DNA of 64,000 nucleotides from Candidatus Limnocylindrales bacterium (lineage in GTDB: Bacteria; Chloroflexota; Limnocylindria; Limnocylindrales; CSP1-4): the NCBI GenBank assembly GCA_038251965.1, contig JBBSAV010000001.1, positions 28,627-92,626 of the forward strand. Direction: 5' to 3'. Every line of letters begins with the position of its first letter. Position 1 is the stretch's first letter. Shown here piece after piece: positions 1-34,012 of the stretch. The notes beneath the pieces were generated by a model. It had not been told where the DNA came from. It worked only from the letters and a program-made list of their open reading frames with translations, and searched no databases. The position numbers and the translations under genes were made by a program.

Positions 1-1269
1 CGGACGCACCCGGGCTGGGTGGCAGTGGGGCTCTTCGTGCTTGCGGCCCTCGTGTACTTCAGCTCCAACCCGGGCCGGACGGACTTCTACGATCACTTCG
101 TCTGGCAGGCCGATGCCTTCCTGCACGGCCGGACCGAGATCGCCTACCCCGTCAGCGACGGCCCCTACCGCAACGACTACTTCCAGGACGTGCTGCCGAC
201 AGCTTCCGACCGGGCGCAGGTGCCGTTCCCGCCGCTACCGGCCATCATCCTGCTGCCGTTCGTGGCCGTCTGGGGCCTCGGCACCAACGCGGCGGCTGTC
301 GCTGCAGCCTTGGGAGCGCTCAACGTGGCCCTGTGCTGGTGGATGCTGCTGGCGGTCACGCCGCGCCGCGCCGCGGTGCTGCTGGGCACGCTGTTCTACG
401 GCTTCGGCACCGTGGCCTGGTACGCGGCCATGTTGGGCACGACCTGGTTCCTGGCGCACGTGGTGGCGTCGACCTTCCTCTTCATCGCCATCGGGCTTGC
501 GGTTCGCGCCGAAGGACACCGCGCCGTCGGCCGCAGGTTCGTGGCCGGGCTCGCGTTCGGGACCGCCGGCGTCGCCCGCCTCACGACCATCTTCGGGGCA
601 CCATTCTTCGTGTTCGTCGGCGCTGGAGGGTCGTGGCCACGGCGTGCCCTGAGCGCCGGGGCCGGGGCGCTCCTCCCGGTGCTCCTCCTGCTCGGCTACA
701 ACCTCGTCACCGCGGGGTCGGTGTTCCATCCTGCCTATGACTATCTCTACGAGGTCGAATATCGGCCTCGCCCTGAGCTGGTGAACCCTGGCTGGTCGAT
801 CGAGGATCCGCGCTACATCCCCCAGAACGCCGGCATCATGCTGGCCCAGTTGCCCAGGATGCCGCTGCTCGACGACCCCGCCTGCGCCTCCGATGGTGTC
901 GCTGCCGGATCACTCTTCGACCCTGAGTGCGCGCTGCTCCAGCCGGACCCCATCGGCATGAGCATCCTGCTCACCAGTCCCGCCTACCTGTTGATGATCC
1001 CCGTCCTGCTGTGGGACTGGCGCCGCCGCCTCGTGGCAGGAGCAGCGTTGGCGGCGCTTTCGATCGCCCTGGTCGACCTGATGCACTTCAGCCAGGGTTG
1101 GGTCCAGTTCGGCTACCGCTTCAGCAATGACTTCGCCCCCTTCGCGGTCGTCCTCGTGGCGCTCGGTATCGCCCGTCTGGGCGTGGGCGTCAGGTCGGTG
1201 GGCTTGGTGGCTGCCTCGATCGCGGTCAACGCCTGGGGTGTCTTCTGGGGCGTGACATTGGGGTGGTGA
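1..1269 (+). CDS. GT-C-fold polytopic membrane glycosyltransferase (PMT_2/ArnT-like); 5' end probably outside window
   Basis: ORF 19..1269 has no in-frame stop back to the window start. It has a multi-TM hydrophobic profile and a first-loop acidic/aromatic motif YDHFVWQADAF. It overlaps the next GT gene by 7 nt (GTGGTGA). Confidence 0.55.
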   Translation, partial: RTHPGWVAVGLFVLAALVYFSSNPGRTDFYDHFVWQADAFLHGRTEIAYPVSDGPYRNDYFQDVLPTASDRAQVPFPPLPAIILLPFVAVWGLGTNAAAVAAALGALNVALCWWMLLAVTPRRAAVLLGTLFYGFGTVAWYAAMLGTTWFLAHVVASTFLFIAIGLAVRAEGHRAVGRRFVAGLAFGTAGVARLTTIFGAPFFVFVGAGGSWPRRALSAGAGALLPVLLLLGYNLVTAGSVFHPAYDYLYEVEYRPRPELVNPGWSIEDPRYIPQNAGIMLAQLPRMPLLDDPACASDGVAAGSLFDPECALLQPDPIGMSILLTSPAYLLMIPVLLWDWRRRLVAGAALAALSIALVDLMHFSQGWVQFGYRFSNDFAPFAVVLVALGIARLGVGVRSVGLVAASIAVNAWGVFWGVTLGW

Positions 1270-2780
1270 GGTCCACAGAAGGCGGAGTGACCCGCTATGC
1301 CCTCGCCGCGCTGCCCGTCTTCGGCGTGGCCCTGGTGCTCTACGCCCGCACCCTGCTGCCGGACGTGGGCCTATGGGACACCGCCGAGTTCCAGGCCATC
1401 GGCACCACGCTGGGGGTCGCCCACCCCACCGGCTACCCGACCTACACGCTGCTGGCCTGGCTGGGCTCGGTGGTGCTGGCGCCGCTGGGCACCGCAGCCT
1501 ACCGGGCCGACCTGCTCTCAGCCCTGCTGATGGCCGGGGCCGCCGCCCTACTGGCAGTCACCACGGTGCAGGTCACGCGGCGCTGGCCCATCGGCCTGCT
1601 GGCGGGCCTGACCTTCGCGCTGACACCCGTGGCCTGGCAGTGGGGGCAGCGCGCCGACCCCCACGCACTGCATGTCTTCATGGCGGCTTTGCTGCTGGTG
1701 CTGCTCGGCGCCTGGGCTGGTGGCCGGGAGCACGACCCGCGCCGCGCCTCGCGCTGGTTGGTCGCTGCCGCCTTCGTGTTCGGCCTCGCGTTGGGCAATC
1801 ACGCCCTGACGTTGTTGCTGGTGCCCGGAATCGCTGCCTACGTCCTGCTGGTCGCGCCTCGCATCCTGTGGCGGCAATGGTGGCTGGTGCTGCTGTGCGT
1901 CGCGGTGATCGCCCTCAGCGCCACCTTGGTCTACCTCTATCTGCCGCTGCGCTCCGCCATGGACCCGCCGCTCGACTATGCGGACCCCGACACCTGGGAC
2001 GCCTTCTGGTATGTCGTCCTGGGCGAACAGTTCCAGGGCTCCTTCGGCCCACTGCCGACGCTCGCAGACATCGTCGCCGGCATGGGCAGCGAGCTGGGCC
2101 GCAACCTCGGGCTCCTCTCGATCCTGGCCGTGTCGGGCGCGCTGGTGGGGCTGGTGCGACACCCCCGCCGCACCGTGCTTTCGCTGCTGTGGTTCGGCTG
2201 TACATGGATCTTTGCCATCGGCTACCCCAACGCCGCCATCGAGCGCTACTACCTGGTGCCGCTGCTGATGGCGGCGCTGTGGGTCGGGCTGGCCGCCGAC
2301 GCTGCCGCAGATACCCTCCGTGGGCTGCTGCAGCGGTCTGCCGGGACCATCCTGGCGAAGGTGCTCGGTGGGACGCTGCTGGCCATCTTGCTGATACTGG
2401 CAGTGATTCCTGCCGCGAACCGCTACGACGACCTCGATGCCTCTGCTGACACCTGGGGCCGGCAGATCATCGAGACCACGTTCAAAGCCCTCGCGCCCGA
2501 TGCAGTCGTCCTCTCGTGGTGGTCATTCTCCACGCCCCTCTGGTATGGCCGCTGGGTGGAGGGCCGGCGCGAGGATGTCACCATCATCGATGACCGTGAC
2601 GTCCTCGACGATGGACTGGGTAGCGTGGAGGCCGCCATCGAGCGCTACCTCGACGAGCGACCCGTCTACCTGATCCGCCTTGACCAGGATCTGGACGCCC
2701 TCCGCGAGCGCTATGAGCTGGAGCTCGTGCCGGCGGTGGCGACCGAGCTCTACCGCGTGGTGGCGCGCAAGACCGAGTGA
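1263..2780 (+). CDS. DUF2723 / TMEM260-like GT-C membrane glycosyltransferase
   Basis: N-terminal signature GLWDTAEFQAIGTTLGVAHPTGYPTY typical of DUF2723; ~10 predicted TM helices followed by a soluble C-terminal domain. Confidence 0.65.
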   Translation: MVRSTEGGVTRYALAALPVFGVALVLYARTLLPDVGLWDTAEFQAIGTTLGVAHPTGYPTYTLLAWLGSVVLAPLGTAAYRADLLSALLMAGAAALLAVTTVQVTRRWPIGLLAGLTFALTPVAWQWGQRADPHALHVFMAALLLVLLGAWAGGREHDPRRASRWLVAAAFVFGLALGNHALTLLLVPGIAAYVLLVAPRILWRQWWLVLLCVAVIALSATLVYLYLPLRSAMDPPLDYADPDTWDAFWYVVLGEQFQGSFGPLPTLADIVAGMGSELGRNLGLLSILAVSGALVGLVRHPRRTVLSLLWFGCTWIFAIGYPNAAIERYYLVPLLMAALWVGLAADAAADTLRGLLQRSAGTILAKVLGGTLLAILLILAVIPAANRYDDLDASADTWGRQIIETTFKALAPDAVVLSWWSFSTPLWYGRWVEGRREDVTIIDDRDVLDDGLGSVEAAIERYLDERPVYLIRLDQDLDALRERYELELVPAVATELYRVVARKTE

Positions 2781-2804
2781 AGCGTGTGGCCCTAGGATTG
2801 GTGC

Positions 2805-3644
2805 GTGCCTGAGAACCGCGACCTCCCTCGCCCCGTCGAACCCGCACGCGTCGAGGCGTTGAGCTACTTCTTTCCTGCCCACGATGAGGCGGCCAATATC
2901 GAGGCCCTCGTGGAGGAGGCGCGAGCAGAGCTGCCGCGCCTGGCGGCGCGCTTCGAGATCATCGCCGTCGACGACGGCAGTACCGATGGCACAGCTGAGA
3001 TCGCCGACCGTTTGGCGGCGATCTACCCGGATGTCGTCCGTGTGGTGCATCACCACGTCAACCAGGGGTATGGCGCGGCCGTGCGTTCCGGGCTCGCCGC
3101 CGCGCGCTATCCGCTGATCTGCTTCACCGACGGCGACCGGCAGTTCCGCATCGCTGACCTGGCGCGCCTGACGGCTCGTCTGGAGGGGGCGGCGGATACC
3201 GCAGCACCCGCGGATGATGCAGCACTCCCGGACGTCGTGGTCGGCTACCGCATCGAGCGCGCCGACCCGGCCATCCGCCTGGCCTATGCGCGAGCCTACC
3301 GCTTCGCCCTGCGGCTCTTCTTCGGGCTCGCGGTACGTGATCCCGACTGCGCCTGCAAGCTCTTTCGACGAGAGGCACTCCAGGACGTTCGCGTCGAATC
3401 CGGTGGCGCCTTCCTGTCGGCTGAGCTACTCATCAAGATCGGCGCCGGTGGCGCGGTCATCGCCGAAGTGGGTGTGCCGCACTACCCGCGCACGGCCGGC
3501 ACGGCCTCGGGCGCGGATCCGCGGGTAGTCTTGCGTGCCGTCAGGGACTTCTGGGACCTGCGCCTGCGCCTGTGGGCGAACCGTGCCTCCGCCCTGCGGC
3601 GCGGCATCCCCATCCTGGCAGATGAAGGCTCCGGGCCGCCCTAA
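2805..3644 (+). CDS. GT2 polyprenol-phosphate sugar synthase (DPM1/PpmA-like)
   Basis: GT2 motifs: AHDEAANIE, IAVDDGSTDGT, QGYGAAVRSG, FTDGDRQ. Lies immediately downstream of the two GT-C genes. Confidence 0.8.
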   Translation: MPENRDLPRPVEPARVEALSYFFPAHDEAANIEALVEEARAELPRLAARFEIIAVDDGSTDGTAEIADRLAAIYPDVVRVVHHHVNQGYGAAVRSGLAAARYPLICFTDGDRQFRIADLARLTARLEGAADTAAPADDAALPDVVVGYRIERADPAIRLAYARAYRFALRLFFGLAVRDPDCACKLFRREALQDVRVESGGAFLSAELLIKIGAGGAVIAEVGVPHYPRTAGTASGADPRVVLRAVRDFWDLRLRLWANRASALRRGIPILADEGSGPP

Positions 3645-4252
3645 TGGTCCTCACCATCGTCGCCCAGTCGGTCGTCGAGAGGGCGCTCGTCCGGATCCGG
3701 CGCGCCGGGGACGGACCCTCCCCCCGATGGTCCCGCAGGGGGCGTAGGGGGCGTAGGGGGCGTCCCGCTCCCCTCACCTGATCCCGGCTCGAGCGAATTG
3801 ACGAACTCACGAAAGACGCTGAGCTTCTCGTCCTCATCCGCCTCGGGGATGACGCCGGCCCGATCAAGCACCGCCTCGGTGGCGAAGATGGGTGCGGCCA
3901 CCCGCACGGCCAGCGCGATGGCGTCACTGGGCCGCGCATCGATCTCGAAGTCGCTGCCGCCCTGGACAAGCACGATGCGGGCCCGAAAGGTCTCGTCGGC
4001 CAGGTCGGAGATGAGGACGCGGCGGACGCTGACGCCCAGGTCCGAGAGGATGGTCGTCAGCAGGTCGTGGGTGAGCGGTCGCTCAGCCTCTACGCCCTGC
4101 AGCTTCATGGCGATCGACTGCGCCTCCCAGCTACCGATCCAGATGGGCAGGTAACGTTCGTCGTCGGCTTCGCGCAGGATGACCACGTGCTGCGACGAGA
4201 GCATGTGCACGCGCACACTCTCCACGACCATCTCCCGTGCGGCACCCGTCAT
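3641..4252 (-). CDS. bifunctional nuclease family protein (DUF151/BFN) with Pro/Thr-rich acidic C-terminal tail
   Basis: Core matches the BFN family (LPIWIGSWEAQSIA...ARPSDAIALAVR). The tail PPTPPTPP is encoded by a 3x tandem 9-bp repeat. Confidence 0.7.
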   Translation of the reverse strand: MTGAAREMVVESVRVHMLSSQHVVILREADDERYLPIWIGSWEAQSIAMKLQGVEAERPLTHDLLTTILSDLGVSVRRVLISDLADETFRARIVLVQGGSDFEIDARPSDAIALAVRVAAPIFATEAVLDRAGVIPEADEDEKLSVFREFVNSLEPGSGEGSGTPPTPPTPPAGPSGGGSVPGAPDPDERPLDDRLGDDGEDH

Positions 4253-4338
4253 GCGCTGATTCTAGCGGTGTGCCCGCAGGCCGCTGGGGCGCCCCCGATA
4301 CCGACGAGCCGACCCCTACCCGCGAGTCGGCGACGCTG

Positions 4339-6459
4339 TCAGCCGACCTCGAGCTTGGTCCGGTAGATCGCCTCAGGAGTGACCCACATGAGCGTGTCGT
4401 CCTTGCGCTTGCCCTTCTTCGTCGTGCCACCCTCGATGATGTACATGCCGCGTACGTCTTCCATCTCGCCGCCATCGCCGGCCGGCAACCACTGGCCGAC
4501 ATAGCCGCCATCGACCTTGTCGAAGCCGACGATCCGCCCATGGAGCGCGTCGTAGAGATATACGCGGCCGTCGGTGTTGGCCCGTCCTGATCCATCTACC
4601 AGGCGGTAGTCGTGGCCGGGCCGCAGGTCGGCATCGTCGGGTGGCGTGGCGATGGCGAATGTGCCGTCGTAGCGCTCGTACCTGTAGCGCCGCAGCTTGT
4701 TCTGGAACAGGGCATAGACGTCGAAATCGATATAGAGCGCCTCGAAGTCCGCCACCTCCGACGCCTGCGAAGCGAGGTATGGGGAGGGCTCCTGGAAGGA
4801 GCTGCCGTCGAAGGTCTGCTGGTAGCGCATGATCTGGTTCAGCGAGGGCTCGGCCACATACATGCGGTACTGGCCCACCGCAGGATCGTAGGCCTCCACG
4901 TCGCCGTGGTCGGCCTCGAAGCCGGAGCGACCCTGCAGCGACAGCTGCACCAGCGTCCCGGCGCCCGCGGAGTTGGACGGCCGCCAACGCCAGGGCCGGG
5001 CCTTGTCGTCGACGATCACCACGTCCGGACCGGCGGCAGCAAGCTGGACAGGCTCACCTATGGCGCGGTTGCTGTTCCCTTGCTTGTCGCCTTCGTGGAC
5101 GATGGCTGCGATCTTGCCGTTCTTGGTATTGGCGCGAAAGACCGTCCCGCTGGAGCGGTCGATGTAGATGGCGCCGTCGTTCAGCCCTTCGACGAGATAG
5201 GCCGGGTCGGAACCCTCCGGCAGACGGGCGATGCGTTCGATGGTCGGGTGGTGCGCTCCGTACAAGGTGTCAAGGCCGGCCCGGACGCGCGTCTCCAGCT
5301 CGTCGAGCGCCGGAGCGGCCAAGCCGGTGTCCCGTGCCTGCTTGACCTCGGTCCAGGCATCACGGTAGTACGCAAGGGCGGTGTCGGGCTCCGTCGTCAG
5401 CAGGTTGTCCGCCCGGTTGACGTAGTCGAGCGCTGACCCCAGCGCGTTGTCGGCTTCGGCGTAGATGGGTACCTCGTTGACGTCGCTACCGCGCGGCACC
5501 AGCACCAGCACCAGGCCGACCACGAAGACGACCACGAGGAGAGCCAGCAGGCCCATCGCGGCGCGGCGCTGGTTCTCGGCACGCGAAGTCGTGGCGGTGA
5601 CCTCTTGCGCGCGCGCGTCTCGCCTGGGCATAGCGTCCCAGAAGCGGTCGCGGACGGAGTCGATGACGTCACCGATACCGACCCGGGAGGCGGTCGCGGT
5701 CCCGTTCATCGAGGCGGCCGCGGCACCGGGCAGATCACCGTAGGCATCTCCACCCGTGGGTGCGATCCCACCCTGGACCCGGGAAGATCGCTCACGGGTC
5801 TCGACCGCGATGAGGCCATCGGAACCGGAGCCCCCAGCGGCCACGAAGAGGTGGTGGAGGTGGTCGACGGCGGCCTGTGGATGCAGGGTGAGGATGGCGC
5901 TCTTGAGCTCCTCGGTCCCGACCGTCTCGGTCATGTTGCGCGACACCAGCAACAGGCCGTCGCCCGGGCTGAGCTCTCCGCGCCAGACAGCGACCGAATT
6001 GATCTCGTCGCTGGGCAGTCCCGCGGGCGCGCTGCGATCGGGCATGAGCAGACGGGCCGCTCGCACCAGGTACGCCTCGGCCGATCCGAGCGTGGCGAGG
6101 TAGAGCTCATCGTTGCGGATGACAGCCGCGGCGACGCCGAGCGATCCTGGAGAAAGGCTTGCTCCTTCGCGACCGCCGCGCAGGCGTCGGTCGGCACTCT
6201 TGACAGCCTTCTCCAGGCAGACCGGCACGCCGGCCGACTCGTCGTAGTAGTACTCGTGCCGAATGGTGTCGGCAACGAGCCTGGTGGCCTCCCGGGCGTA
6301 CGGTCCCGGGATGGTCGAGCCGACAAGGATGAAGAGCACGCCCTTGGAGCGGGTCTTCGATCCGGTGGTCGGCCGGGTCACGCTGAGTGTGTCGGCTGAA
6401 GACGGAAGCCGGTCCCGCTCGCCGATCGATCCATGCGTGATCTCGAGTCGGGTAGCCAT
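4339..6459 (-). CDS. PstP-like membrane protein: degenerate PP2C (probable pseudophosphatase) domain + 1 TM + ~390-aa extracytoplasmic repeat domain
   Basis: N-terminal ~230 aa align by eye to bacterial PP2C blocks (LYLATLGSAEAYLVR ~ GDSRxYLLR; GDGLLLVSRNM ~ DRYLLCSDGL; GGSGSDGLIAVE ~ GGPDNVTVVV). Three of the four metal-ligand Asp residues are replaced: ADGMGG becomes LVGSTIPG, GDS becomes GSA, SDG becomes SRN. Single TM helix AMGLLALLVVVFVVGLVLVLV. C-terminal domain with recurring Y-x-D/G-rich beta-strand-like repeats. Confidence 0.6.
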   Translation of the reverse strand: MATRLEITHGSIGERDRLPSSADTLSVTRPTTGSKTRSKGVLFILVGSTIPGPYAREATRLVADTIRHEYYYDESAGVPVCLEKAVKSADRRLRGGREGASLSPGSLGVAAAVIRNDELYLATLGSAEAYLVRAARLLMPDRSAPAGLPSDEINSVAVWRGELSPGDGLLLVSRNMTETVGTEELKSAILTLHPQAAVDHLHHLFVAAGGSGSDGLIAVETRERSSRVQGGIAPTGGDAYGDLPGAAAASMNGTATASRVGIGDVIDSVRDRFWDAMPRRDARAQEVTATTSRAENQRRAAMGLLALLVVVFVVGLVLVLVPRGSDVNEVPIYAEADNALGSALDYVNRADNLLTTEPDTALAYYRDAWTEVKQARDTGLAAPALDELETRVRAGLDTLYGAHHPTIERIARLPEGSDPAYLVEGLNDGAIYIDRSSGTVFRANTKNGKIAAIVHEGDKQGNSNRAIGEPVQLAAAGPDVVIVDDKARPWRWRPSNSAGAGTLVQLSLQGRSGFEADHGDVEAYDPAVGQYRMYVAEPSLNQIMRYQQTFDGSSFQEPSPYLASQASEVADFEALYIDFDVYALFQNKLRRYRYERYDGTFAIATPPDDADLRPGHDYRLVDGSGRANTDGRVYLYDALHGRIVGFDKVDGGYVGQWLPAGDGGEMEDVRGMYIIEGGTTKKGKRKDDTLMWVTPEAIYRTKLEVG

Positions 6460-6471
6460 GAGTGCCCTAGT

Positions 6472-6816
6472 CTAGCGTGGCCGCCCCGAATCCCCGCGGC
6501 GCGACCCCCTTACGATCACCTGCAACTCCAGCAGTCGTCGTCCACCGGGCGCCGAGGCGAAGGCTTCCAGCAGGTCGGCCGAATAGAGGCGCAATTCCTG
6601 GCCGGTGGCAGCATCATCAGCAGAGACCAGCAGGGTCGGCGGACGTACCTCCAACAGCTGCGACGCACCTGCCGCGGGCGGCACCAGCTCTTCGACGATA
6701 CGGATCCAGGAGGACATCGCCCGAGCCGCGCGCAGCTCCTCGTCAAGGCCAAGCTGGGAGGCGATACCGGGCAGCAGATCAGCGAGTCTGTGGACCGGGC
6801 GCCTGCGCGAAGTCAT
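6472..6816 (-). CDS. dciA: DciA (DUF721) helicase-operator-like protein
   Basis: DUF721-like sequence directly after recF. Start trimmed to the ATG that forms an ATGA overlap with the recF stop. The longest ORF would reach 6867. Confidence 0.7.
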   Translation of the reverse strand: MTSRRRPVHRLADLLPGIASQLGLDEELRAARAMSSWIRIVEELVPPAAGASQLLEVRPPTLLVSADDAATGQELRLYSADLLEAFASAPGGRRLLELQVIVRGSRRGDSGRPR

Positions 6817-7979
6817 CGGTTGCCCGGTGTTCCGACGAGGCTGACGCTGCCGTGCTCGACCTGCCACAGCGTCGAAGCGGCCACCAGGGCCGGGTCGAGG
6901 TCAGCAGGCGTGGTGGTGGTGACGATGGCCTGCGGCAAGCTGCCGATGCGGCGCACGAGGTGAGAGCGCCGCATCGGGTCCAGCTCGCTGAAGACGTCAT
7001 CGAGCAACAGCAGCGGGGGGTGGCCGTCGAGCGATGTCAACAGGTCCAGCTCGGCCAGCTTCAGGGCAAGGATGGCGGTGCGCTGCTGTCCACGCGAAGC
7101 GAACTCGGTCAGCTCGCGGCCGTCAGCGATGAAGACGAAGTCGTCACGGTGCGGTCCCACCAGCGTGGCACCGTTCCACACCTCCTTGTCAGCCGTCTCG
7201 CGCAGGCGTCGACGCAAGGCGTCCCGGACCCGTTCACCCACGATAGCCTCCACGTTCGAGCGGTAGTGCAGGGCGAGCCCTGGTTCCTCGGGCGCGATCT
7301 CGCGGTGGGCCTCAGACAGTGGCTCGGCGAGTGCCGCCATCGTCTCGTGGCGCCAATCGAGGATCTGGCCGCCGTTCTCCACGATGAGCGAATCCCAGTA
7401 GGAGAGCTCGGCGCGATCGGCCTGTTCCTCGCGGATGCGTCGCAACAGCGAGTTTCGTTGCGTGAGGGTTCGCTGGTAGGTGGACATCACGGCCGTTGCC
7501 GTCGGCTCACGCTGGCCGACCAGTGAATCGAGCAAGCTTCGCCGTAGCGAGGGCGTGCCCACGATGAGCAGCATGTCCTCGGGCGCGAAGAGCACCGTTC
7601 GCAGCATCGAGCGCAGCGCCGCAGGGCGACGATTGACGCCGTTCACGCGGATCCGTTTGCGGGCGGCACCTGCATCCGAACTCCTGGCGTGAACCACGAC
7701 TTCCAGCTCCTCTGTGCGATCGCCGACATCGACCTGACCTGAGACGCGCGCGAAATCAGCGCCCCAGCGGACCATCTCGGGATCCACGGAGCTGCGGTGC
7801 GAGCGGCCCGACGAGAGCAATACCAGCGACTCGACCAGGTTGGTCTTGCCGGCGGCGTTGCGCCCCACCACCACGTGGGGGCCAGCGCCGAACTCGACCT
7901 CAAGATGCCGGTAGCTGCGGAAGCCGTCGAGCGTCAGTGTTCGGACCGGCATCAGACGGCGACCAAGGCCTGGCCGCAC
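6813..7979 (-). CDS. recF: DNA replication and repair protein RecF
   Basis: Walker A GRNAAGKTNLVESL; SMC-like architecture; follows dnaN. Confidence 0.95.
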   Translation of the reverse strand: MRPGLGRRLMPVRTLTLDGFRSYRHLEVEFGAGPHVVVGRNAAGKTNLVESLVLLSSGRSHRSSVDPEMVRWGADFARVSGQVDVGDRTEELEVVVHARSSDAGAARKRIRVNGVNRRPAALRSMLRTVLFAPEDMLLIVGTPSLRRSLLDSLVGQREPTATAVMSTYQRTLTQRNSLLRRIREEQADRAELSYWDSLIVENGGQILDWRHETMAALAEPLSEAHREIAPEEPGLALHYRSNVEAIVGERVRDALRRRLRETADKEVWNGATLVGPHRDDFVFIADGRELTEFASRGQQRTAILALKLAELDLLTSLDGHPPLLLLDDVFSELDPMRRSHLVRRIGSLPQAIVTTTTPADLDPALVAASTLWQVEHGSVSLVGTPGNR

Positions 7980-8010
7980 GCGGCCGTGCTCGTGTCTCGC
8001 GCCGTGTCGG

Positions 8011-9132
8011 TCAGGAGGGTGTGCGTACCGGCATGATCACATGCACATAAGCCGGGTCGTCCACTGGCTTCAGCACACCCGGCGCAAGCGGGCCACTCAA
8101 CTCCACCGCCAGTTGCTCGCCATCCATGTTCTGCAGCGCTTCCACCATGTAGCGGGCGTTGAACGCGATGGTGACCGGGTCACCTTCCAGCTGCGCATCG
8201 ACGCGTCCCTCGGCATCACCCACGTCCGCCTTGGCGTTGACGGCGATCGACTCGGGCGCCTCCTCCTCTCCGAAACCGAGCCGCACGACATTGGCTGATG
8301 AGGAGGCGATGAGCGCGGTCAGTCGAACAGCCTTCAACAGCTCATCACGATCGACCAGGGCACGGGTGCTGTGTGATGTCGGCAGCACCGACTGATAGTT
8401 GGGGAACTGGCCGTCGATCAGCCGACTGACGATCTCGGTCGTGTCGACCCTGAAGATGACCTGATTCTTGGCCTGGGCGAGGATGATATCGACCGGCTCC
8501 TCGCTGTCGCCGAGCACACGCATCAGCTCGACATAGGAGCGTGCCGGGACCACCACGCTGGTCTCTTCCACCGACTGCATCAGCTCAAGCGTCTTGACCG
8601 CGATGCGGTAGTTGTCAGCTGCGGCAAGCGTCAGGACCTCACCGGAGAGCTTCGTCAGCACACCGGTGAGGATCGGACGGGTCTCGTCAGCAGCAGCGGC
8701 GAACGTGACCTCGGCCAAGGCACGCCGCATGGCCTTCTGGCTCACCTGGGTGGTGGGACGGTCGCCGGCGGCAGGGATGACCGGGAACTCCTCAGCATCG
8801 ATGCCACGCAGACGTGACTTGTAGTTGCCGGAACGGATCAGGAGCGTGTTCTCCTTCTCCATCTCCAGGTCCACTCGCTCACCGGCCGGCAGTCCTCCGA
8901 CCACGTCGGTGAGGAGGCGAGCCGGCACGGTCATCGTGCCATCGGTGTCGATCTTCCCCGGCACCCACACCGAGATGCCGATCTCAAGGTTGGTGGCGGT
9001 GAGGCGGAGGCCACCGTCCTGGGTCTTCAGCAGGACGTTGGCAAGGACTGGCAGGGTCGCCCGACTGCTGACGGCGCGGGCCACGTGGGACAAGCCCCGG
9101 GCCAGGTTCTCTTGCATCAAGGACAGCTTCAC
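8011..9132 (-). CDS. dnaN: DNA polymerase III beta sliding clamp
   Basis: 373 aa with N-terminus MKLSLMQENLARGLSHVARAVSSR typical of DnaN; downstream of dnaA. Confidence 0.95.
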   Translation of the reverse strand: MKLSLMQENLARGLSHVARAVSSRATLPVLANVLLKTQDGGLRLTATNLEIGISVWVPGKIDTDGTMTVPARLLTDVVGGLPAGERVDLEMEKENTLLIRSGNYKSRLRGIDAEEFPVIPAAGDRPTTQVSQKAMRRALAEVTFAAAADETRPILTGVLTKLSGEVLTLAAADNYRIAVKTLELMQSVEETSVVVPARSYVELMRVLGDSEEPVDIILAQAKNQVIFRVDTTEIVSRLIDGQFPNYQSVLPTSHSTRALVDRDELLKAVRLTALIASSSANVVRLGFGEEEAPESIAVNAKADVGDAEGRVDAQLEGDPVTIAFNARYMVEALQNMDGEQLAVELSGPLAPGVLKPVDDPAYVHVIMPVRTPS

Positions 9133-9589
9133 GAGCGGTCGAGCTCCCTATGAGATGTACATGGTTCTTTCTAATCTTCTCATCTCATCATCATCTTCAT
9201 GCTGTGGATTGTGATGATGACCCTGCATCGCTGTGCTGCACCCACGCTTATCACTGCGTGACCAGGGTGGCGGATAGCCGGTGAACGATGCGTGCACGGT
9301 TGCCTGTCCAGCGTGGATGACCCATGACAAGACCCACATATGGCCCCCGCCCGCCCACGGTCCTGTTCACCAGCGGGCGATCCGCCCCACGCTGGGGAGA
9401 TCGAGTTCTCCACACTCGCTCCACAGGTCCCCGGTGACCAAGGAACCCCCAAGCAGATCAGCGGGCCTGCCCTCCGGGAACGACCAGCGGCCTTCCTCGC
9501 AGGCTGGCACCATGTCCGGATGGTCGTGACCCGGGGTCGGATGTGAGTGCCGTCCTGACCCTGCTGCTGGTGCTGATGCTGTAGCTGTC
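9133..9589. other. candidate replication-origin module (DUE-like AT-rich tract + DnaA-box-like 9-mers) in dnaA-dnaN spacer
   Basis: 9150-9220 is locally AT-rich (ttctttctaatcttctcatctcatcatcatcttcat) in a ~70% GC genome. DnaA-box-like sites: TTCTCCACA (9407-9415), TGTGGATTG (9204-9212), CGTGGATGA (9312-9320). Confidence 0.4.
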
Positions 9590-9928
9590 GTGACGGAGCT
9601 CCCCATCAGCGCCGGGGACTGGATGGCCGATCGCAGCCTGCGCCAGCTGGCGCTCCGTGACGAGGGGGTCATCGTCTTAGGCATCGAGCGGCCCGACGGC
9701 ACGTACTTCGGGGTGCCTGTCGCCGAGACGGTCATCCAACCCCGGGACGTGCTGATCATCTACAGCCGCCGGGGCGCGCTGTTCCAACTGCACCAGCGAC
9801 GTCGTGACCGCGGGGGCGAAGAAGCTCACCGGGCGGCCGTGAAGGAGCAGACGCGCCTCATCGCTGCGGAGGGATCGGGGGACGCGGACCAGAGGAGGGT
9901 GGACGACGACGCCGGCATGGCGAGCTGA
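9590..9928 (+). CDS. orphan TrkA-C (RCK_C) domain small protein
   Basis: SAGDWMADRSLRQLALRDEGVIVLGIERPDGTYFGVPVAETVIQPRDVLIIYSRRGALFQL fits the TrkA-C fold signature. GC3 is very high (coding-like). No clear SD; the start codon (GTG 9590 or ATG 9623) is uncertain. Charged C-terminal tail. Confidence 0.5.
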   Translation: MTELPISAGDWMADRSLRQLALRDEGVIVLGIERPDGTYFGVPVAETVIQPRDVLIIYSRRGALFQLHQRRRDRGGEEAHRAAVKEQTRLIAAEGSGDADQRRVDDDAGMAS

Positions 9929-9935
9929 CCGGACC

Positions 9936-11324
9936 CTACTTGTCGGAGTAGATCGACTCCCGGACCGCGGCAAGCTCGCGTCGCAACTCCTCGTTGCGAG
10001 ATGCCTCTTGGTCGATCTTCTTGCAGCCGTGCAGGACCGTGGAGTGGTCCCGTCCGCCCAGCTCGGCGCCGATGCGCAGCAGTGATACATCGGTCTCTTC
10101 CCGCATCAGGTACATGGCGATCTGGCGCGGCACGACGATGGCGCGGTCACGCTTCTGGCCTCGCAGCGCGTCCAGCTCCACGTCGTAGTAGTCCGCTACC
10201 GCGATGGCGATCCGCTCTGGTGTGATGGCGCGTTTGCGCGGGCTGTAGAGCACGTTCGAAAGGACGGCTTGTGCCAGGTCGACGCTGATGGGCATGCCCT
10301 GCATGGAGGCATAGGCGACGATGCGATTGAGCGCGCCCTCAAGCTCCCGGATGTTGGACGCGACCTTGCGGGCGATGAACTCCAGTGCGTCAGAGTCGAC
10401 GCGCACACCCTGCTCCTCCGACTTGGTGCGCAGGATGGCGATGCGGGTCTCCAGGTCGGGCGCGGTGAGGTCGGCGATGAGTCCCCACTCGAAGCGGCTG
10501 CGCAGTCGCTCTTCGAGCGTGACGATCTGCTTGGGGGGCCGGTCGCTGGAGAGCACGATCTGCTTGCCGTCCTCGTGGATGGCATTGAAGGTGTGGAAGA
10601 ACTCCTCCTGCGTGCGTTCCTTGTCGGCGATGAACTGGATGTCGTCGATCAGCAGCAGGTCGATCTTGCGGTAGCGCGCACGGAAGCCATCGATGCGCCC
10701 CTGCTGGATGGAGGTGATGAAGTCGTTGGTGAACTTCTCGCTGGTGGCATACACGACTCGCTTTCGCGGAAAACGCTGCGCGACCGCATTGCCGATCGCA
10801 TGCATGAGGTGTGTCTTGCCCAGTCCGACCCCGCCATAGAGGAAGAGCGGGTTGTAGGCCTCGCCCGGACGCTCCGCGACCGACAGGCTGGCCGCATGCG
10901 CCAAACGGTTGGCCGAGCCCACGATGAACGTGCGGAACGTATAGCGTGCATTGAGGTTGACGCTCCCACCCTCCGCGCCGCCCACACGGCCTGGCTCCAC
11001 ACGAACCTTGGGGCTGCGTGCCGGAGGTGCTGCCTTTTGCGGCGCGCGCGGTGCAGGCGCCTCTGCCTCCTCGGGCTCGGGATCGAGGATGTCGAACTCG
11101 ACATTGACGCTGTAGCCCACGATGCGTGCGAGGGTCTGTGCGATCAGCGAGCGATAACGGTTCTCCAGCCAGTCCTTGGCGAAGCCGTTGGGTGCTCCGA
11201 CGCGAAAGAGGTCTCCGTCGACATCGACGAGGGTCGTGTCCTTCAGCCAGGTTTCGTAGTTGGCCGGGGACAGCGACACCTGAAGCTCACCGAGAGTGGC
11301 TCTCCAGACCTGTTTTGCGTCCAT
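9936..11324 (-). CDS. dnaA: chromosomal replication initiator DnaA
   Basis: AAA+ Walker [11 protein letters not shown], DnaA signature and C-terminal DNA-binding domain. Start set at [11 protein letters not shown] (conserved DnaA N-terminus). The longest ORF to 11672 would add a non-conserved 116-aa extension. Confidence 0.93.
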
Positions 11325-11717
11325 CGATGGCAACGTGACCCGTATTACGACACGACTTTGCGCTTGGCGGTGCGAATGCCCTCCGAGACACTCCACGCTG
11401 AGGCGCGATCGATACTCCTGGAGGGAACCGGCCCGAACCCTCTCCGGACGTTGTGGCGGTGACTCCAGACTACATCTCCGAGCCCTTCGAAGGGCGCCGG
11501 GGCGGCATACGTTAGCACCGCGTTTCCCGACTGTGCAACGTCCATTGGGCATACCCCCAGGGAGTATCGTTCCCGGCCTTGCCCGAGACTGCCGACAGCG
11601 CCCCGACGTAGCGGTCGACCCCGTACGGGGGTGCCGCCGGAGGCCATCGGGTGGTGGCAGGACGCACCACATATCACTGACCGGCAGCCTCTCCGCACGC
11701 GGCTGCGGCGCATCGGA

Positions 11718-12098
11718 CTACGTCACCCGCTGGCCAGGCTCCGCACCCTCATCGACGCCCAGCAAGGGGATCCCACCAGCCGGCGCAAGGGCCCCCAGGA
11801 CCAGCACCTCGCTGCGAAAGCCGGCCACCCGGCGCGGTGGGAAGTTCACCACCGCCACGACCAACCGACCGACAAGGAGGGCCGGGTCCGGGTACGTCTG
11901 CGTGAGTTGCGCCGATGATCGCCGCTCGCCTGCGGCACCGAAGTCGAGGCGAAGCTTGTACGCGGGTTTGTGTGCGCCGTCGAGCGGACTTGCCTCCAGG
12001 ATGCGGCCGACGCGCAGGTCAAGACGCTCGAAGTCCTCCATGGTGGCGCTGCCGGGCTCAAGGAACGGCACCTCGCTGGGCGGTTGATCGACGGACAT
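11718..12098 (-). CDS. CsaA-like tRNA-binding (OB-fold, EMAP/Myf) domain protein
   Basis: [19 protein letters not shown]...KLRLDFG...VVAVVNFPP matches the tRNA_bind domain pattern. GGAGG lies 8 nt upstream of the ATG at 12098. Confidence 0.65.
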
Positions 12099-12279
12099 GC
12101 AAGCTTCCTCCGGTCTGCGGCGACTGTCGCGTATAATCCGCTCCATCCGAGGTGGGCGTGCGCCCGGGACGACCACAAGTGGTCTACCGTGCCCGTTGTC
12201 CGCATCGTCCACATCCGCACCGGCAGGCCGGTCTCCCCAAGTCGAACCCGACCGCCTGCTCGAAGGAGCCCAGTTCCCA

Positions 12280-12417
12280 GTGACCAAGCAGACCTATCAG
12301 CCCAAGAAGCGCCATCGCGCTAGGGAGCATGGCTTCCGCAAGCGGATGAAGAGCCAGGGTGGCCGCAACGTCCTCGCCGCTCGGCGGGCACGTGGCCGCA
12401 AGAAGCTCACCGTCTGA
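12280..12417 (+). CDS. rpmH: 50S ribosomal protein L34
   Basis: [45 protein letters not shown]; GTG start; divergent from dnaA. Confidence 0.9.
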
Positions 12418-16692: not shown

Positions 16693-18087
16693 TTACGGCA
16701 TCTCCGACGGCAGCGGCCGGATCGAGGTTCCCGGCGAGGCCGCTGCCGGTGACACGGCGGACGCGGCCGACGGGGACGGCGACACTCCGGGCATCGGCTG
16801 CTCCAGCAGCAGCGCGATGGCGGTCTGCAGTTGGCCGTCGAGCGACGGATCGCCTCCGGCTACGCCCGGCCGGAAGCGCTGGCCGGTCGCGGGGACGAAG
16901 GCATCCGGCGACAACCCGGTGCCATCGATGGGGTTCTTGTCCCGGGTCAGCCAGGTCGCGACCGAGAGACGGAAGCCGCCGTTCTCGCCGGGCAGCTCCG
17001 TCCATTCCTGCACCGTGCCCTTGCCGAACGATGGCTCCCCCAGCAGGCGAGCACGGCCGGAGTCCTGGAGCGACCCCGCGAGGATCTCGCTGGCCGATGC
17101 CGAGCCACCATTCATCAAGACGACCACTGGCAACCCTGGGTCGGTGGCCAAGCCACCCTCGATGACGTTCACGGCCGTCTGCCGGCCCGCCGCATCCTCT
17201 TCCCAGAAGACCACGCCATCGTCGAGGAACTGGCTGCTGATCGCCACCGTCGCATCCACGAAGCCGCCCGGATCATCGCGCACGTCCACGATGAAGGCCT
17301 CGACCCCAGCGTCCAGTTGCCCTTCGAGGGCCGCCCTGAAGTGGTCGGCGGCGTTGACGCCGAAGCTGTCGATGGCCAGGTAGCCGACCCGCCCGTCGGC
17401 CAGGAGGGCCGAGTGGACATCCTCGCTGACGACCGTGTCGCGTGTGATGGCCAGATCCAGCGTCTCGCCATCACGCTGCACTGTCAGCACCACCTCACTG
17501 CCGCGCGGACCGAGGATGTGACGCACCGCATCGTCGATGGGGCTGCCCGCGAGCGTCTCACCGTCGACAGCGGTGACGAGGTCATCGACCTGCAGCCCGG
17601 CCGCCTGCGCCGGGGCGCCGGCCAGGACATCGAGCACGCGCAGCGTACAGCCTGTGCCGATGGGCTCACATGGCTCGCCGGAAGCATCCTCGGTGGCCAT
17701 GACCGCACCCACACCCTCGAACTCGCCGCGGGCATCGTCGAGCGCCGCCCCGAACTGGCCAGGAGGCATATAGCCGGAGTGGGGATCGCCGAGGACATCG
17801 AACATGCCCGCGATGGCGCCCTCGACCAACTCCTTGGGCGCGGGTGTTCCGATGTATCGCTCGGTGATGCTGCGATAGGTCTCGCTGAAGGCCTCGACAG
17901 CAGCGCGCTCATCGGCGGTGCGCCCGCTGGTCTGGCTCCCGAGGCTAAGACCAGCCCAGAAGACCACCGCGGCCGAGACCGCCAGCAGCACCATGGCCGT
18001 GAGGCCGACCGTCGGCCCACCGCCAGGGCGGGGCGTGTGGGGTGGTGGCGGCTTTCCCGGCTGGGTCGGTTCGTGGGGGGTGGTCAT
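16693..18087 (-). CDS. ctpA: S41 family C-terminal processing peptidase
   Basis: PDZ + S41 catalytic region GGSASASEILAGSLQD...GEPSFGKGTVQ. N-terminal TM. Start trimmed to the ATG just downstream of the ftsX stop; the longest ORF would reach 18171. Confidence 0.85.
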   Translation of the reverse strand: MTTPHEPTQPGKPPPPHTPRPGGGPTVGLTAMVLLAVSAAVVFWAGLSLGSQTSGRTADERAAVEAFSETYRSITERYIGTPAPKELVEGAIAGMFDVLGDPHSGYMPPGQFGAALDDARGEFEGVGAVMATEDASGEPCEPIGTGCTLRVLDVLAGAPAQAAGLQVDDLVTAVDGETLAGSPIDDAVRHILGPRGSEVVLTVQRDGETLDLAITRDTVVSEDVHSALLADGRVGYLAIDSFGVNAADHFRAALEGQLDAGVEAFIVDVRDDPGGFVDATVAISSQFLDDGVVFWEEDAAGRQTAVNVIEGGLATDPGLPVVVLMNGGSASASEILAGSLQDSGRARLLGEPSFGKGTVQEWTELPGENGGFRLSVATWLTRDKNPIDGTGLSPDAFVPATGQRFRPGVAGGDPSLDGQLQTAIALLLEQPMPGVSPSPSAASAVSPAAASPGTSIRPLPSEMP

Positions 18088-18106
18088 GGAGCGATGAGGG
18101 GTCGTG

Positions 18107-18991
18107 CTAGCGCAGGTACGTGCGCACGCTGATCCAGGCACCCAGGCCGCCGAGGCCAAGACCGGCGCCAAGCACGATACCCATGATCTGTAGCGTCAAC
18201 GAACTGTCGAAACCGAGCGGCACCGATCCGGCGATGTCGCTGGCGAGATCACTGATCGGCGGCGAAGCGACGAGCAGCAACAGCAACGTGATGACCGCAC
18301 CCGTGATGCCGATAAAGACGCCCTCGAGGATGAACGGCCAGCGCACATAGCGATCCGATGCGCCGACGAGGCGCATGATCTCGATCTCCTGCGCGCGCGC
18401 CATCAAGGCCATGCGGATGCTGTTGATGACGATGAGCAGCACGGTGAGACCAGCGAAACCGAGCACGACCACGCCCAGGTTGCGCAGCTGCGAGGTCAGG
18501 CTGACAAGCTTGTCGATTCCCGTCTGCTGATCAGGCACGAAACGCACCAGGCCGGTCTCCGCTCGCAGTATCTCCGTCACCGCCCCCGACTCGCGGGGGT
18601 TCCGCAGCTCCACGGTGAGATACGCCGGCAGTGGGTTGTTGAGGCCGGTATAGACGCTCGTATCCTGGCCCTCGGCTTTGCGTGCGGCAAGGAATGCAGC
18701 CAGCGCTTCCTCCTTGCTGGTGTACGTAACGGAGGCGACCTCAGCGAGTGCCTCCACGCGCGTCTGCAACTCGGCGATGCGCTCCTCCAGCACACCATCG
18801 TGCAGCTCGGCGGTCACCTCCACCTTGGATTCGACGTACTCAAGGCCCGATTCGACGCCGGAGATCAGGATCACCAGCGCCGCCAGCATCAACAACATCA
18901 GGATCATGGTGACCGTGGCGGCGATGTTCATCACGCGGTTGCGCCACAAGCCCTGAAGGGATTGGCGCACGGAGAAGCGCAGGAAGTGCAT
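18107..18991 (-). CDS. ftsX: cell division permease FtsX
   Basis: FtsX_ECD + 4 TM; follows ftsE. Confidence 0.9.
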   Translation of the reverse strand: MHFLRFSVRQSLQGLWRNRVMNIAATVTMILMLLMLAALVILISGVESGLEYVESKVEVTAELHDGVLEERIAELQTRVEALAEVASVTYTSKEEALAAFLAARKAEGQDTSVYTGLNNPLPAYLTVELRNPRESGAVTEILRAETGLVRFVPDQQTGIDKLVSLTSQLRNLGVVVLGFAGLTVLLIVINSIRMALMARAQEIEIMRLVGASDRYVRWPFILEGVFIGITGAVITLLLLLVASPPISDLASDIAGSVPLGFDSSLTLQIMGIVLGAGLGLGGLGAWISVRTYLR

Positions 18992-19003
18992 CAGCGCGCC
19001 GCT

Positions 19004-19834
19004 CTAGTACTCACGGTGGTAGCCGCCGACCTCGTCGCGCACGACGCGACCATCCTCCAGCGCCACCACTCGGCGCCGCAGTGCCGTCACCACCTCAGCG
19101 TCGTGGGTGGCCATCATCACGGTCGTGCCCATCTCGTTGATACGCAGCAGCAACTGGATGATCTCCCAGGAGATGAGTGGGTCAAGGTTCCCGGTGGGCT
19201 CGTCGGCGATGATGAGGCGCGGGTCGTGGACCATGGCGCGGGCGATGGCCGTGCGTTGCTGCTCACCGCCCGACAGCTCGTTGGGGCGCTGGCGTGCCTG
19301 CTCGGTCAAGCCGACCAGCGCCAGCGCGCGCACGACGGCGGGATCCATCAGCTTGCGCGGCGTACCGGTGACTTCCAAAGCGAAGGCGACGTTCTCATAG
19401 ACCGTCTTTCGAGGCAGCAAGCGGAAGTCCTGGAAGACGATGCCGATGCGGCGCCGCAGCCTGGGAACGTCGCGCTTCTTCATGCGACCAAGGTCGTGGC
19501 CGGCGACCTCGACGCGGCCCTCACTGGCCTTCTCATCTCGAACCAGTAGCTTGATGAGCGTGGACTTGCCCGCGCCCGACGGGCCGACGAGGAAGATGAA
19601 GTCACCCTCGGGGATGACCAGATCGACCTCGATCAGGGCCTGTTTGCCGTTGGGGTAGGTCTTGGTGACGCCCTCGAGGCGCACCGAATCGTGCCTCTCG
19701 GGTGGAGGCAGCTGCTGGCCGGTGACAGGTGCTCCGGGCAGTACGGGTCCAGGCGCCGCTGGGGCTGGCGACTGGTCGGGCCGGGGTGAACCCCAAGGTG
19801 GCCCGGCGACGGCCCGGGAAACGGCGTCGCTCAT
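19004..19834 (-). CDS. ftsE: cell division ATP-binding protein FtsE (longest ORF carries ~50-aa Pro-rich N-terminal extension; true start may be internal)
   Basis: VRLEGVTKTYPNGKQAL, Walker A GPSGAGKST, ABC signature LSGGEQQR. Confidence 0.9.
   Translation of the reverse strand: MSDAVSRAVAGPPWGSPRPDQSPAPAAPGPVLPGAPVTGQQLPPPERHDSVRLEGVTKTYPNGKQALIEVDLVIPEGDFIFLVGPSGAGKSTLIKLLVRDEKASEGRVEVAGHDLGRMKKRDVPRLRRRIGIVFQDFRLLPRKTVYENVAFALEVTGTPRKLMDPAVVRALALVGLTEQARQRPNELSGGEQQRTAIARAMVHDPRLIIADEPTGNLDPLISWEIIQLLLRINEMGTTVMMATHDAEVVTALRRRVVALEDGRVVRDEVGGYHREY

Positions 19835-27617: not shown

Positions 27618-27640
<23 letters not shown>
26567..27640 (-). CDS. prs: ribose-phosphate pyrophosphokinase
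   Basis: [12 protein letters not shown]..., PRPP-binding loop [10 protein letters not shown]. Start uncertain: candidates are ATG 27640/27637 or GTG 27595. The longest ORF to 27757 overlaps gyrA. Confidence 0.9.

Positions 27641-34012
<6,372 letters not shown>

Follow-up and report, generated by a model that had tools for sequence, protein, structure and literature searches.

Pseudoenzymes are well documented in eukaryotic signalling and have rarely been described in bacteria where, to our knowledge, Escherichia coli RssB is the known example of a pseudoenzyme with the PPM (PP2C) fold. RssB acts by binding, as an adaptor of sigmaS (PMC6546054), and TAB1 is likewise a regulator of TAK1 and p38 by binding (PMC12002173). 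Among membrane proteins, PstP (Rv0018c) of Mycobacterium tuberculosis joins a cytoplasmic PP2C domain of ~230 residues to a linker, one transmembrane (TM) helix and an extracellular C-terminal domain (PMC3052367), and PknD-type receptor kinases carry a propeller sensor (cited in PMC1847690). Here we describe a gene from Candidatus Limnocylindrales whose product recalls each of these systems. It lies in a 64-kb stretch of contig JBBSAV010000001.1 (64,000 nucleotides, hereafter the window), as the open reading frame (ORF) 4339-6459. This ORF is a real gene, with a GC3 of 0.84 that resembles that of the adjacent genes (GC by codon position). On balance, we consider it probable that the product is a receptor-like transmembrane pseudophosphatase, in which a propeller would sense the outside and a non-catalytic PP2C-fold domain would bind cytoplasmic partners. 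Its parts are the following:

4339-6459, minus strand: the whole ORF, a single-pass membrane protein of 706 residues with an ATG start (ORF list and translation)
5785-6459, minus strand: cytoplasmic PP2C/PPM-fold domain, residues 1-225, predicted to be catalytically dead (AlphaFold2, Foldseek, hhalign)
5566-5784, minus strand: low-complexity juxtamembrane linker, residues 226-298, the least conserved region
5494-5565, minus strand: single TM helix, residues ~299-322 (lone Kyte-Doolittle peak above 1.6)
5263-5475, minus strand: extracytoplasmic three-helix bundle, residues 329-399 (AlphaFold2; helices 8-32, 37-56 and 62-78 in ectodomain numbering)
4351-5238, minus strand: six-bladed NHL-type beta-propeller, residues 408-703 (AlphaFold2 model)

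The N-terminal domain is assigned the PP2C/PPM fold by profile-profile alignment and structure prediction only. A family profile of this domain was aligned by hhalign with six bona fide PP2Cs from annotated records (the Nocardia farcinica PstP orthologue, one Stp1/IreP phosphatase and four others), leaving out three relatives that are apparently frameshifted (P0190, P0251 and P0254) and one in which the N-terminal half of the domain is missing (P0245). The global mode gave a probability of 97.5% (E 2.7e-11), and the local mode with a richer profile gave 98.3% (E 1.1e-14), pairing residues 41-221 of the query with 29-235 of PP2C. In line with this assignment, the AlphaFold2 model of residues 1-229 (mean predicted local distance difference test, pLDDT, 84.6; predicted template modelling score, pTM, 0.85) has the strand and helix order of PP2C, a fold in which two pairs of helices flank a central beta-sandwich. 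The top Foldseek matches of the model in the PDB are all PP2C-fold phosphatases (TM-score ~0.7, E 3e-14 to 1e-9); the best is tPphA (E 3e-14), PstP is matched at E 4e-13 and a TM-score of ~0.73 (2CM1, 1TXO), and further matches include PppA, MspP, PPM1K, SpoIIE and RsbU. The original prediction, made from the letters of this DNA, had proposed an N-terminal PP2C domain, and these values support its proposal.

Other searches did not reach significance. Pfam gave no match on the full-length protein and only E 0.21 for PF00481 (PP2C) on the isolated domain, and the NCBIfam model Stp1_PP2C matched at E 0.057. The phmmer and profile hmmsearch runs against PDB sequences, with the full protein and with family profiles, returned no PP2C match, and none of 10 distant family members matched PP2C in a Pfam scan. 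A weak profile match to the acyl-CoA thioesterase TesB2 (E 0.3-0.6) was rejected as chance; the stretch that it covers folds as PP2C in the model.

The positions of the PP2C metal ligands were read from the hhalign register, and residues were tallied over 77 species-level homologues. The substitutions and remnants of the catalytic site are as follows:

6316-6318, minus strand: Ser48, replacing the metal-bridging Asp of DGxGG (motif II; PstP D38, PP2Calpha D60; hhalign)
6082-6084, minus strand: Ser126, replacing the third-metal Asp of GDSR (PstP D118; hhalign)
5938-5940, minus strand: Arg174, replacing the metal-binding Asp of xSDG (motif VIII; PstP D191, PP2Calpha D239; hhalign)
6391-6411, minus strand: motif I remnant R17-x3-S21-x-D23 (hhalign register)
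5818-5862, minus strand: HLHH (residues 200-203, last helix) and then GG-x-G-S-D214, with H200, H202 and D214 in 77/77 species

DGMGG thus reads S48-T-I-P-G in this protein, GDSR reads G125-S-A-E and xSDG reads S173-R174-N. The hand alignment of the original prediction had the same register, and its three substitutions (S48, S126 and R174) stand. Position 48 is Ser in 53 species, Ala in 13, Gly in 6, Val in 3 and Thr in 2, and position 174 is Arg in 56, Gly in 6, Ser in 5, Pro in 5, His in 3 and Lys in 1; neither is Asp or Glu in any species, and both DGxGG and xSDG are also missing in family members at 22-30% identity. Position 126 is variable (Asp 26, Pro 23, Ser 10, Gly 9), position 128 is acidic in 74 of the 77 species, and the flap region is ~23 residues shorter than in PstP according to hhalign.

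Part of the site is retained. D23, which aligns to the Asp of NED (PstP D25), is kept in 76/77 species, and R17 and S21 are kept in all 77. The alignment sets G13 opposite PstP R20, followed by a five-residue insertion that holds R17, with a spacing of R17-x5-D23 versus R20-x4-D25; R17 may be the counterpart of the phosphate-binding Arg (PstP R20, PP2Calpha R33). At the other end of the domain, hhalign places G212 opposite PstP D229, in a register that is ambiguous by two residues and with a loop two residues longer, and in the AlphaFold2 secondary structure D214 lies two residues ahead of the final strand, like D229 in PstP. Anchored in this manner, D214 is probably the equivalent of the motif XI Asp of GxxDN (PstP D229, PP2Calpha D282).

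As judged from the alignment, two of the four core carboxylates are lost, the bridging one included, and the third-metal Asp is not conserved. It is a strong prediction that the binuclear PPM metal centre cannot form, and the loss of key metal ligands makes a pseudophosphatase the likely interpretation. The original count of three lost aspartates out of four, with only the last GxD kept, has to be amended, since it included the third-metal Asp and omitted the retained D23 of motif I.

Conservation within the protein is highest in the dead domain, which is also among the best-conserved parts of the locus. Column identity over the 77 species averages 0.73 in residues 1-225, compared with 0.50-0.54 in the linker, the TM helix, the helical bundle and the propeller. 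The 56 homologues with less than 50% overall identity still share 58% in the N-domain, against 36% in the propeller and 23% in the linker. Family-specific motifs of the domain include:

6229-6255, minus strand: EYYYDESAG, residues 69-77, the family hallmark at the alpha1-alpha2 turn, missing from real PP2Cs
6340-6378, minus strand: 13-residue family-specific insertion TRPTTGSKTRSKG, residues 28-40, aligned to gaps of PP2C in hhalign

Within the hallmark, Y71, Y72, D73, E74 and G77 occur in 77/77 species and each of the other four positions in at least 71/77, and the motif remains as [ED]Y[YF]YD.S[AG]G in members at 25-30% identity. The insertion (PxTGSKxRxKG) has P30, T32, G33, S34, R37, K39 and G40 invariant and is a predicted flexible basic loop, with pLDDT below 50 at residues 33-36. 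R160 and H200-L-H202-H203 are also among the conserved features without counterpart in real PP2Cs. This peak of conservation in the dead domain, together with invariant motifs of its own, suggests that a function other than catalysis has been retained. Going by the topology of PP2C, the pole opposite the catalytic site would hold the alpha1-alpha2 turn and the beta2-beta3 loop, and EYYYDESAG, HLHH and the PxTGSKxRxKG loop may form a new interaction surface.

The order of a cytoplasmic PP2C domain, a TM helix and a large outside domain was correctly anticipated by the original prediction, given the single hydrophobic peak and the positive-inside charge. Averaged over the 77 homologues, the charge of the flanks of the TM helix is +4.0 (N side) and -0.9 (C side), and no N-terminal signal peptide was found in the 706-residue protein. 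Because of these two features, the topology is predicted as N-in and C-out, with the PP2C-like domain in the cytoplasm and residues 323-706 outside. The linker ends in a conserved basic stretch, MPRR...SRAE-QRR, in which P278, R280, E295, R298 and R299 are invariant.

The ectodomain is modelled by AlphaFold2 (pLDDT 82.6) as a three-helix bundle followed by 24 strands, which form the six four-stranded blades of an NHL-type propeller; the blades start at about residues 419, 470, 521, 574, 618 and 671, and strand 408-412 closes blade 6. The beta-propeller had been a guess of the original prediction, which the model bears out, and the recurring Y-x-D units on which it dwelt correspond to the NHL blade motif. 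Foldseek matches the ectodomain to the NHL domains of TRIM71, Lin41, Brat and Thin and to the Pizza6 designs (E 1e-8 to 1e-7), and its matches include propeller enzymes, namely Drp35 lactonase, an SMP-30-like lactonase and phytase (E ~1e-8) and virginiamycin B lyase. At the level of profiles, the family weakly matches the NHL-like repeats of a Ser/Thr kinase chain (8pkr, E 0.12) and the NHL region of Thin (6d69, E 2.5, also weak). Pfam NHL (PF01436) has no match in the window protein, where only PQQ_2 appears at E 0.014, and a distant member (P0183) passes the PF01436 cut-off with 21.7 bits against 20. The propeller loops WRWRPS and PPDDxDLRPGHDY are invariant.

The family is unannotated, has no Pfam or NCBIfam model and is nearly confined to the class Limnocylindria. 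None of its 972 relatives in the protein database has a recorded Pfam domain, and all are 'hypothetical' except one, named PrpC by JGI. An exhaustive profile search collected 1674 cluster representatives at E <1e-3. At least 449 GTDB species genomes carry the gene, nearly all of them Chloroflexota metagenome-assembled genomes (MAGs) labelled Limnocylindria or Limnocylindrales. The 0.97-Mb contig CAWFCG010000001.1 has a copy with 95% identity. Three loci come from MAGs labelled Solirubrobacteraceae, Alphaproteobacteria and Sulfotelmatobacter (L046, L052 and L062); they share the same syntenic block at ~38-42% identity, and their labels are probably binning or labelling errors rather than signs of horizontal transfer. 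The most distant homologue examined (P0265, 22% identity, 775 residues; 8001-11094 of locus L087) is not beside dnaA-recF-dciA; its immediate downstream neighbour is a RodZ-like gene (HTH_25 and RodZ_C), a context that hints at a connection with cell shape or the envelope in that lineage.

In the window, the gene follows a set of co-oriented replication genes, listed here with the downstream BFN gene and with gyrB and gyrA:

9936-11672, minus strand: dnaA, co-oriented, 5' of the ORF (Pfam)
8011-9132, minus strand: dnaN, co-oriented, 5' of the ORF (Pfam)
6813-7979, minus strand: recF, co-oriented, 5' of the ORF (Pfam)
6472-6867, minus strand: dciA, co-oriented, 5' of the ORF (Pfam PF05258, E 5e-8)
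3641-4252, minus strand: BFN (bifunctional nuclease domain, PF02577) gene, co-oriented, downstream (Pfam E 2e-41)
31173-33146, minus strand: gyrB, intact
27618-30200, minus strand: gyrA, intact

Only 12 nt separate the stop codon of dciA from the ATG of the ORF, and 86 nt separate its own stop codon from the BFN gene. A promoter and terminator scan of 3400-12400 stayed at background level and found no terminator-like site between dciA, the ORF and BFN. The short gap after dciA, the lack of an intergenic terminator-like site and the kept gene order make the arrangement operon-like, and the ORF probably shares a transcript with dnaA-dnaN-recF-dciA and, on its downstream side, BFN. The original prediction placed the gene where gyrBA would be, after recF-dciA. 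It does lie directly after recF-dciA; gyrBA, however, has moved away from its usual recF-adjacent place and is not lost, so that the statement holds in a positional sense only. The two gyrase genes share the strand of dnaA and lie ~16-21 kb upstream of it, with a 327-residue ORF between them at 30197-31180.

The gene order was scored in 80 related loci, with identity down to 36%, as far as the contigs reach. The order dnaA-dnaN-recF-dciA-X-BFN, where X is the gene described here, is kept in 80/80 loci where contigs allow; dciA is directly upstream in all 80, and dnaA, dnaN and recF are present wherever the contig reaches. BFN follows in 75 loci, and the other five gave no match downstream of the ORF. 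Where contigs extend, the next genes along are a divergent cluster of GT2, TMEM260/PMT-like and membrane-protein genes. Two members at 25-27% identity show the order recF-dciA-X-(rhomboid)-BFN-GT2, one of them with a PMT gene as well. A rhomboid protease gene with GASG and HIGG motifs lies between X and BFN in six of the 80 loci (L067, L074 and L077-L080; ~12270-12970 in L077) and also on the contig of P0183. Its carriers are the most divergent relatives, and neither the window nor any of the other 74 loci has it; in the carrier lineages, the single-pass pseudophosphatase could be a rhomboid substrate.

Several further features of the neighbourhood deserve mention. The recF and dciA ORFs as listed share 55 nt (6813-6867, minus strand), and the true start of dciA probably lies further downstream, because the Pfam match begins only at residue 28. 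DnaA (9936-11672, minus strand) has 578 residues and its DnaA_N domain starts at residue 121, which leaves an N-terminal extension of ~120 residues. The dnaA-dnaN intergenic region (9133-9935) is unusually long, ~800 bp, and is a candidate oriC or unwinding element. GC shows a local dip to 0.535 over 9100-9299, the two genes flank a perfect inverted repeat of 9 nt, TCATCATCA/TGATGATGA, at 9185-9220, and a 112-residue ORF of high GC3 occupies 9590-9928 of the region on the plus strand. The DnaA box TTATCCACA, with at most one mismatch, has 3 matches versus 3.1 expected, and the sole near-consensus box of the intergenic region, at 9406, is likewise at chance level.

The BFN protein (3641-4252, minus strand) has a Pro-, Gly- and Asp-rich C-terminal tail of ~50 residues (PPTPPTPPAGPSGGG...DDRLGDDGEDH). 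In Actinobacteria, BFN/DUF151 genes adjoin garA (FHA) and MerR genes. A PADLOC search for defence systems found no match for the ORF or its BFN neighbour. The divergent cluster at 19-3644 (plus strand) encodes a 416-residue polytopic membrane protein without Pfam match, a TMEM260/PMT-like O-mannosyltransferase and a GT2 glycosyltransferase; it accompanies the locus in most relatives and looks like a protein-glycosylation module. At 16693-19834 (minus strand), an ftsE-like ABC ATPase gene, ftsX and the gene of a PDZ-containing S41 (CtpB-like) peptidase form a cluster that is possibly a control module for cell division or cell-wall hydrolases; an inositol monophosphatase gene and prfB/prfA-type release factor genes come after it.

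Under our preferred model of a receptor-like pseudophosphatase, the domain would have no binuclear Mn/Mg centre and hence would not dephosphorylate proteins. Constrained as it is, it would bind one or more conserved cytoplasmic partners via EYYYDESAG, HLHH and the basic PxTGSKxRxKG loop and/or a vestigial phosphate pocket (R17, D23, R174, D214). The propeller would in turn bind an envelope or extracellular ligand and control the interaction with the partner, much like the sensor of the PknD kinase, and the protein would act in the non-catalytic, adaptor-like manner of the PPM pseudophosphatases RssB, TAB1 and PHLPP2. That it is a signalling scaffold is something we infer, and the high conservation of the dead domain strengthens the case. 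Several observations weigh against this model. D23, D214 and R17 are invariant or nearly so and position 128 is acidic in 74/77 species, so that residual or altered catalysis is conceivable, and a single metal or anion site could survive, by analogy with TAB1 and PHLPP2. In 21/77 species, G, S, P, H or K stands in place of R174, which therefore cannot be essential to a universal mechanism, and the spatial clustering of the conserved motifs is deduced from topology. Motif scans of the 64-kb window gave no convincing Hanks kinase, FHA or catalytic PP2C motif, so that the partner Ser/Thr kinases or FHA proteins envisaged by the original prediction did not turn up there; a scan of the flanks of the 80 related loci also gave no catalytic PP2C motif. 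Finally, the adjacency to replication genes is weak functional evidence, because the entire nine-gene block is syntenic.

Would the retained residues still support catalysis? We regard this as quite unlikely. An atypical PPM could hydrolyse phospho-substrates or some other small phosphoester with one metal or with alternative ligands, drawn from D23, D214, E/D128 and, where present, D126, with Arg174 taking part of the charge role. The conservation of D23, D214 and R17, the acidic position 128 and the Asp found at 126 in 26/77 species would suit such an enzyme, the very strong conservation of the domain is equally expected of one, and TAB1 and PHLPP2 still bind one metal (PMC12002173). However, the bridging position is non-acidic in all 77 species and in distant members, the D191 ligand is lost too, and the flap, which carries third-metal and substrate contacts, is shortened; in this regard, all characterised PPMs require two or three metals (PMC12002173), and the D38G substitution alone, the type of change that this protein has by nature, costs PstP >90% of its activity (PMC3052367). 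The same remnants could alternatively read phospho-proteins or trap substrates within a Ser/Thr kinase pathway, a sub-case of binding that we hold to be improbable. The vestigial site (R17, R160, R174, D23, D214) would hold pThr or pSer partners unhydrolysed, protecting or sequestering them at the membrane, and a kinase could target the conserved TGS loop itself. The kept Arg of motif I, the Arg that replaces a metal ligand in 56/77 species and the invariant Thr32 and Ser34 within a flexible basic loop are consistent with this idea, and PstP is phosphorylated by its own kinases (PMC3052367). Yet R174 is not universal, the scans just described found none of the expected kinase or FHA motifs in the window nor a catalytic PP2C there or in the 80 flanks, and the strongest family-specific conservation, EYYYDESAG, is expected from topology to lie far from the old active site.

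The function might also reside outside the cell, with the propeller as an enzyme (lactonase, lyase or phytase-like) or as an envelope-binding or structural module, possibly tied to the neighbouring glycosyltransferase and O-mannosyltransferase genes, and the PP2C-like domain as a relic that is no more than a cytoplasmic anchor. The Foldseek matches to Drp35, SMP-30-like lactonase, virginiamycin B lyase and phytase, the invariant loops WRWRPS and PPDDxDLRPGHDY and the GT2, TMEM260/PMT-like and membrane-protein cluster, kept beside the locus even in distant lineages, all speak for it. Nevertheless, the top structural matches are binding-type NHL domains (TRIM71, Brat, Pizza6), and the cytoplasmic domain shows the highest conservation in the protein, which cannot be squared with a relic anchor; we consider this explanation unlikely. 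As an elaboration of the receptor model, the protein might serve as a transmembrane checkpoint, tying chromosome replication to the condition of the envelope or the environment through a signal sensed by the propeller, a proposal to which we attach very little likelihood. In its molecular form, for which the chances seem just as slim, the dead PP2C domain would sequester or release a replication or cell-cycle factor at the membrane, e.g., DnaA, DnaN, RecF, DciA or BFN, and in the deep-branching relatives the adjacent rhomboid may free the domain by intramembrane cleavage.

If the receptor-like pseudophosphatase is the right reading, this previously undescribed, class-wide family, with a dead PP2C fused to an NHL propeller of receptor type, would represent a receptor pseudophosphatase and a candidate transmembrane signalling component for Limnocylindria, an abundant uncultured lineage of soil and freshwater. 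It also offers a natural experiment on the repurposing of the PP2C fold, and, given its constant position in the dnaA operon, a link between envelope sensing and replication is conceivable. Annotation pipelines miss the family or mislabel it as 'PrpC phosphatase'.

With respect to known systems, the resemblance to PstP that the original prediction had stressed holds for the overall architecture of a cytoplasmic domain, one TM helix and an ectodomain, and breaks down at the ectodomain and the gene neighbourhood. PstP has kept D38, D191 and D229 and is an active Mn2+ enzyme, whereas Ser and Arg stand at the equivalents of D38 and D191 here, and the identity between the two proteins is ~16-20%. 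The ectodomain of PstP has 191 residues, is Pro-rich and forms no propeller, and is unrelated to the bundle and NHL propeller described here (BLASTP of our ectodomain against the C-terminal domain of the Nocardia farcinica PstP orthologue, E = 1). The PstP gene is close to the replication origin, as is the gene studied here, but its neighbourhood of pknA/pknB, fhaA/fhaB, rodA and pbpA is missing from this locus. Orthology to PstP is ruled out by the unrelated ectodomain, the different neighbourhood and the missing catalytic residues.

The C-terminal domain of RssB, TAB1 and PHLPP1/2 share with the N-terminal domain a PP2C fold that lacks catalytic Asp ligands and is kept under selection. They are soluble and intracellular proteins, fused to a receiver domain, to LRR-PH domains or to nothing, in contrast to the single-pass membrane protein with a propeller considered here, which moreover has invariant motifs of its own (EYYYDESAG, HLHH). 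The searches of PDB sequences and profiles gave no match to RssB, TAB1 or PHLPP, and the best structural matches of the N-domain are active bacterial PP2Cs; since no kinship with these pseudophosphatases is detectable, the loss of catalysis looks independent of theirs.

PknD-type receptor kinases, finally, share the plan in which one TM helix links a signalling-fold domain in the cytoplasm to a six-bladed NHL propeller on the outside, and the Pizza6 designer propellers, which are among the matches of our ectodomain, derive from the PknD sensor. The cytoplasmic domain of PknD is a kinase, whereas here it is a predicted dead PP2C; unlike PknD, the protein has an extra three-helix bundle between membrane and propeller, and its blades are divergent, with no Pfam NHL match in the window protein. 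Taken together, these comparisons suggest that the protein would work like a hybrid of PstP in its architecture, PknD in its type of sensor and RssB/TAB1 in its dead PPM fold.

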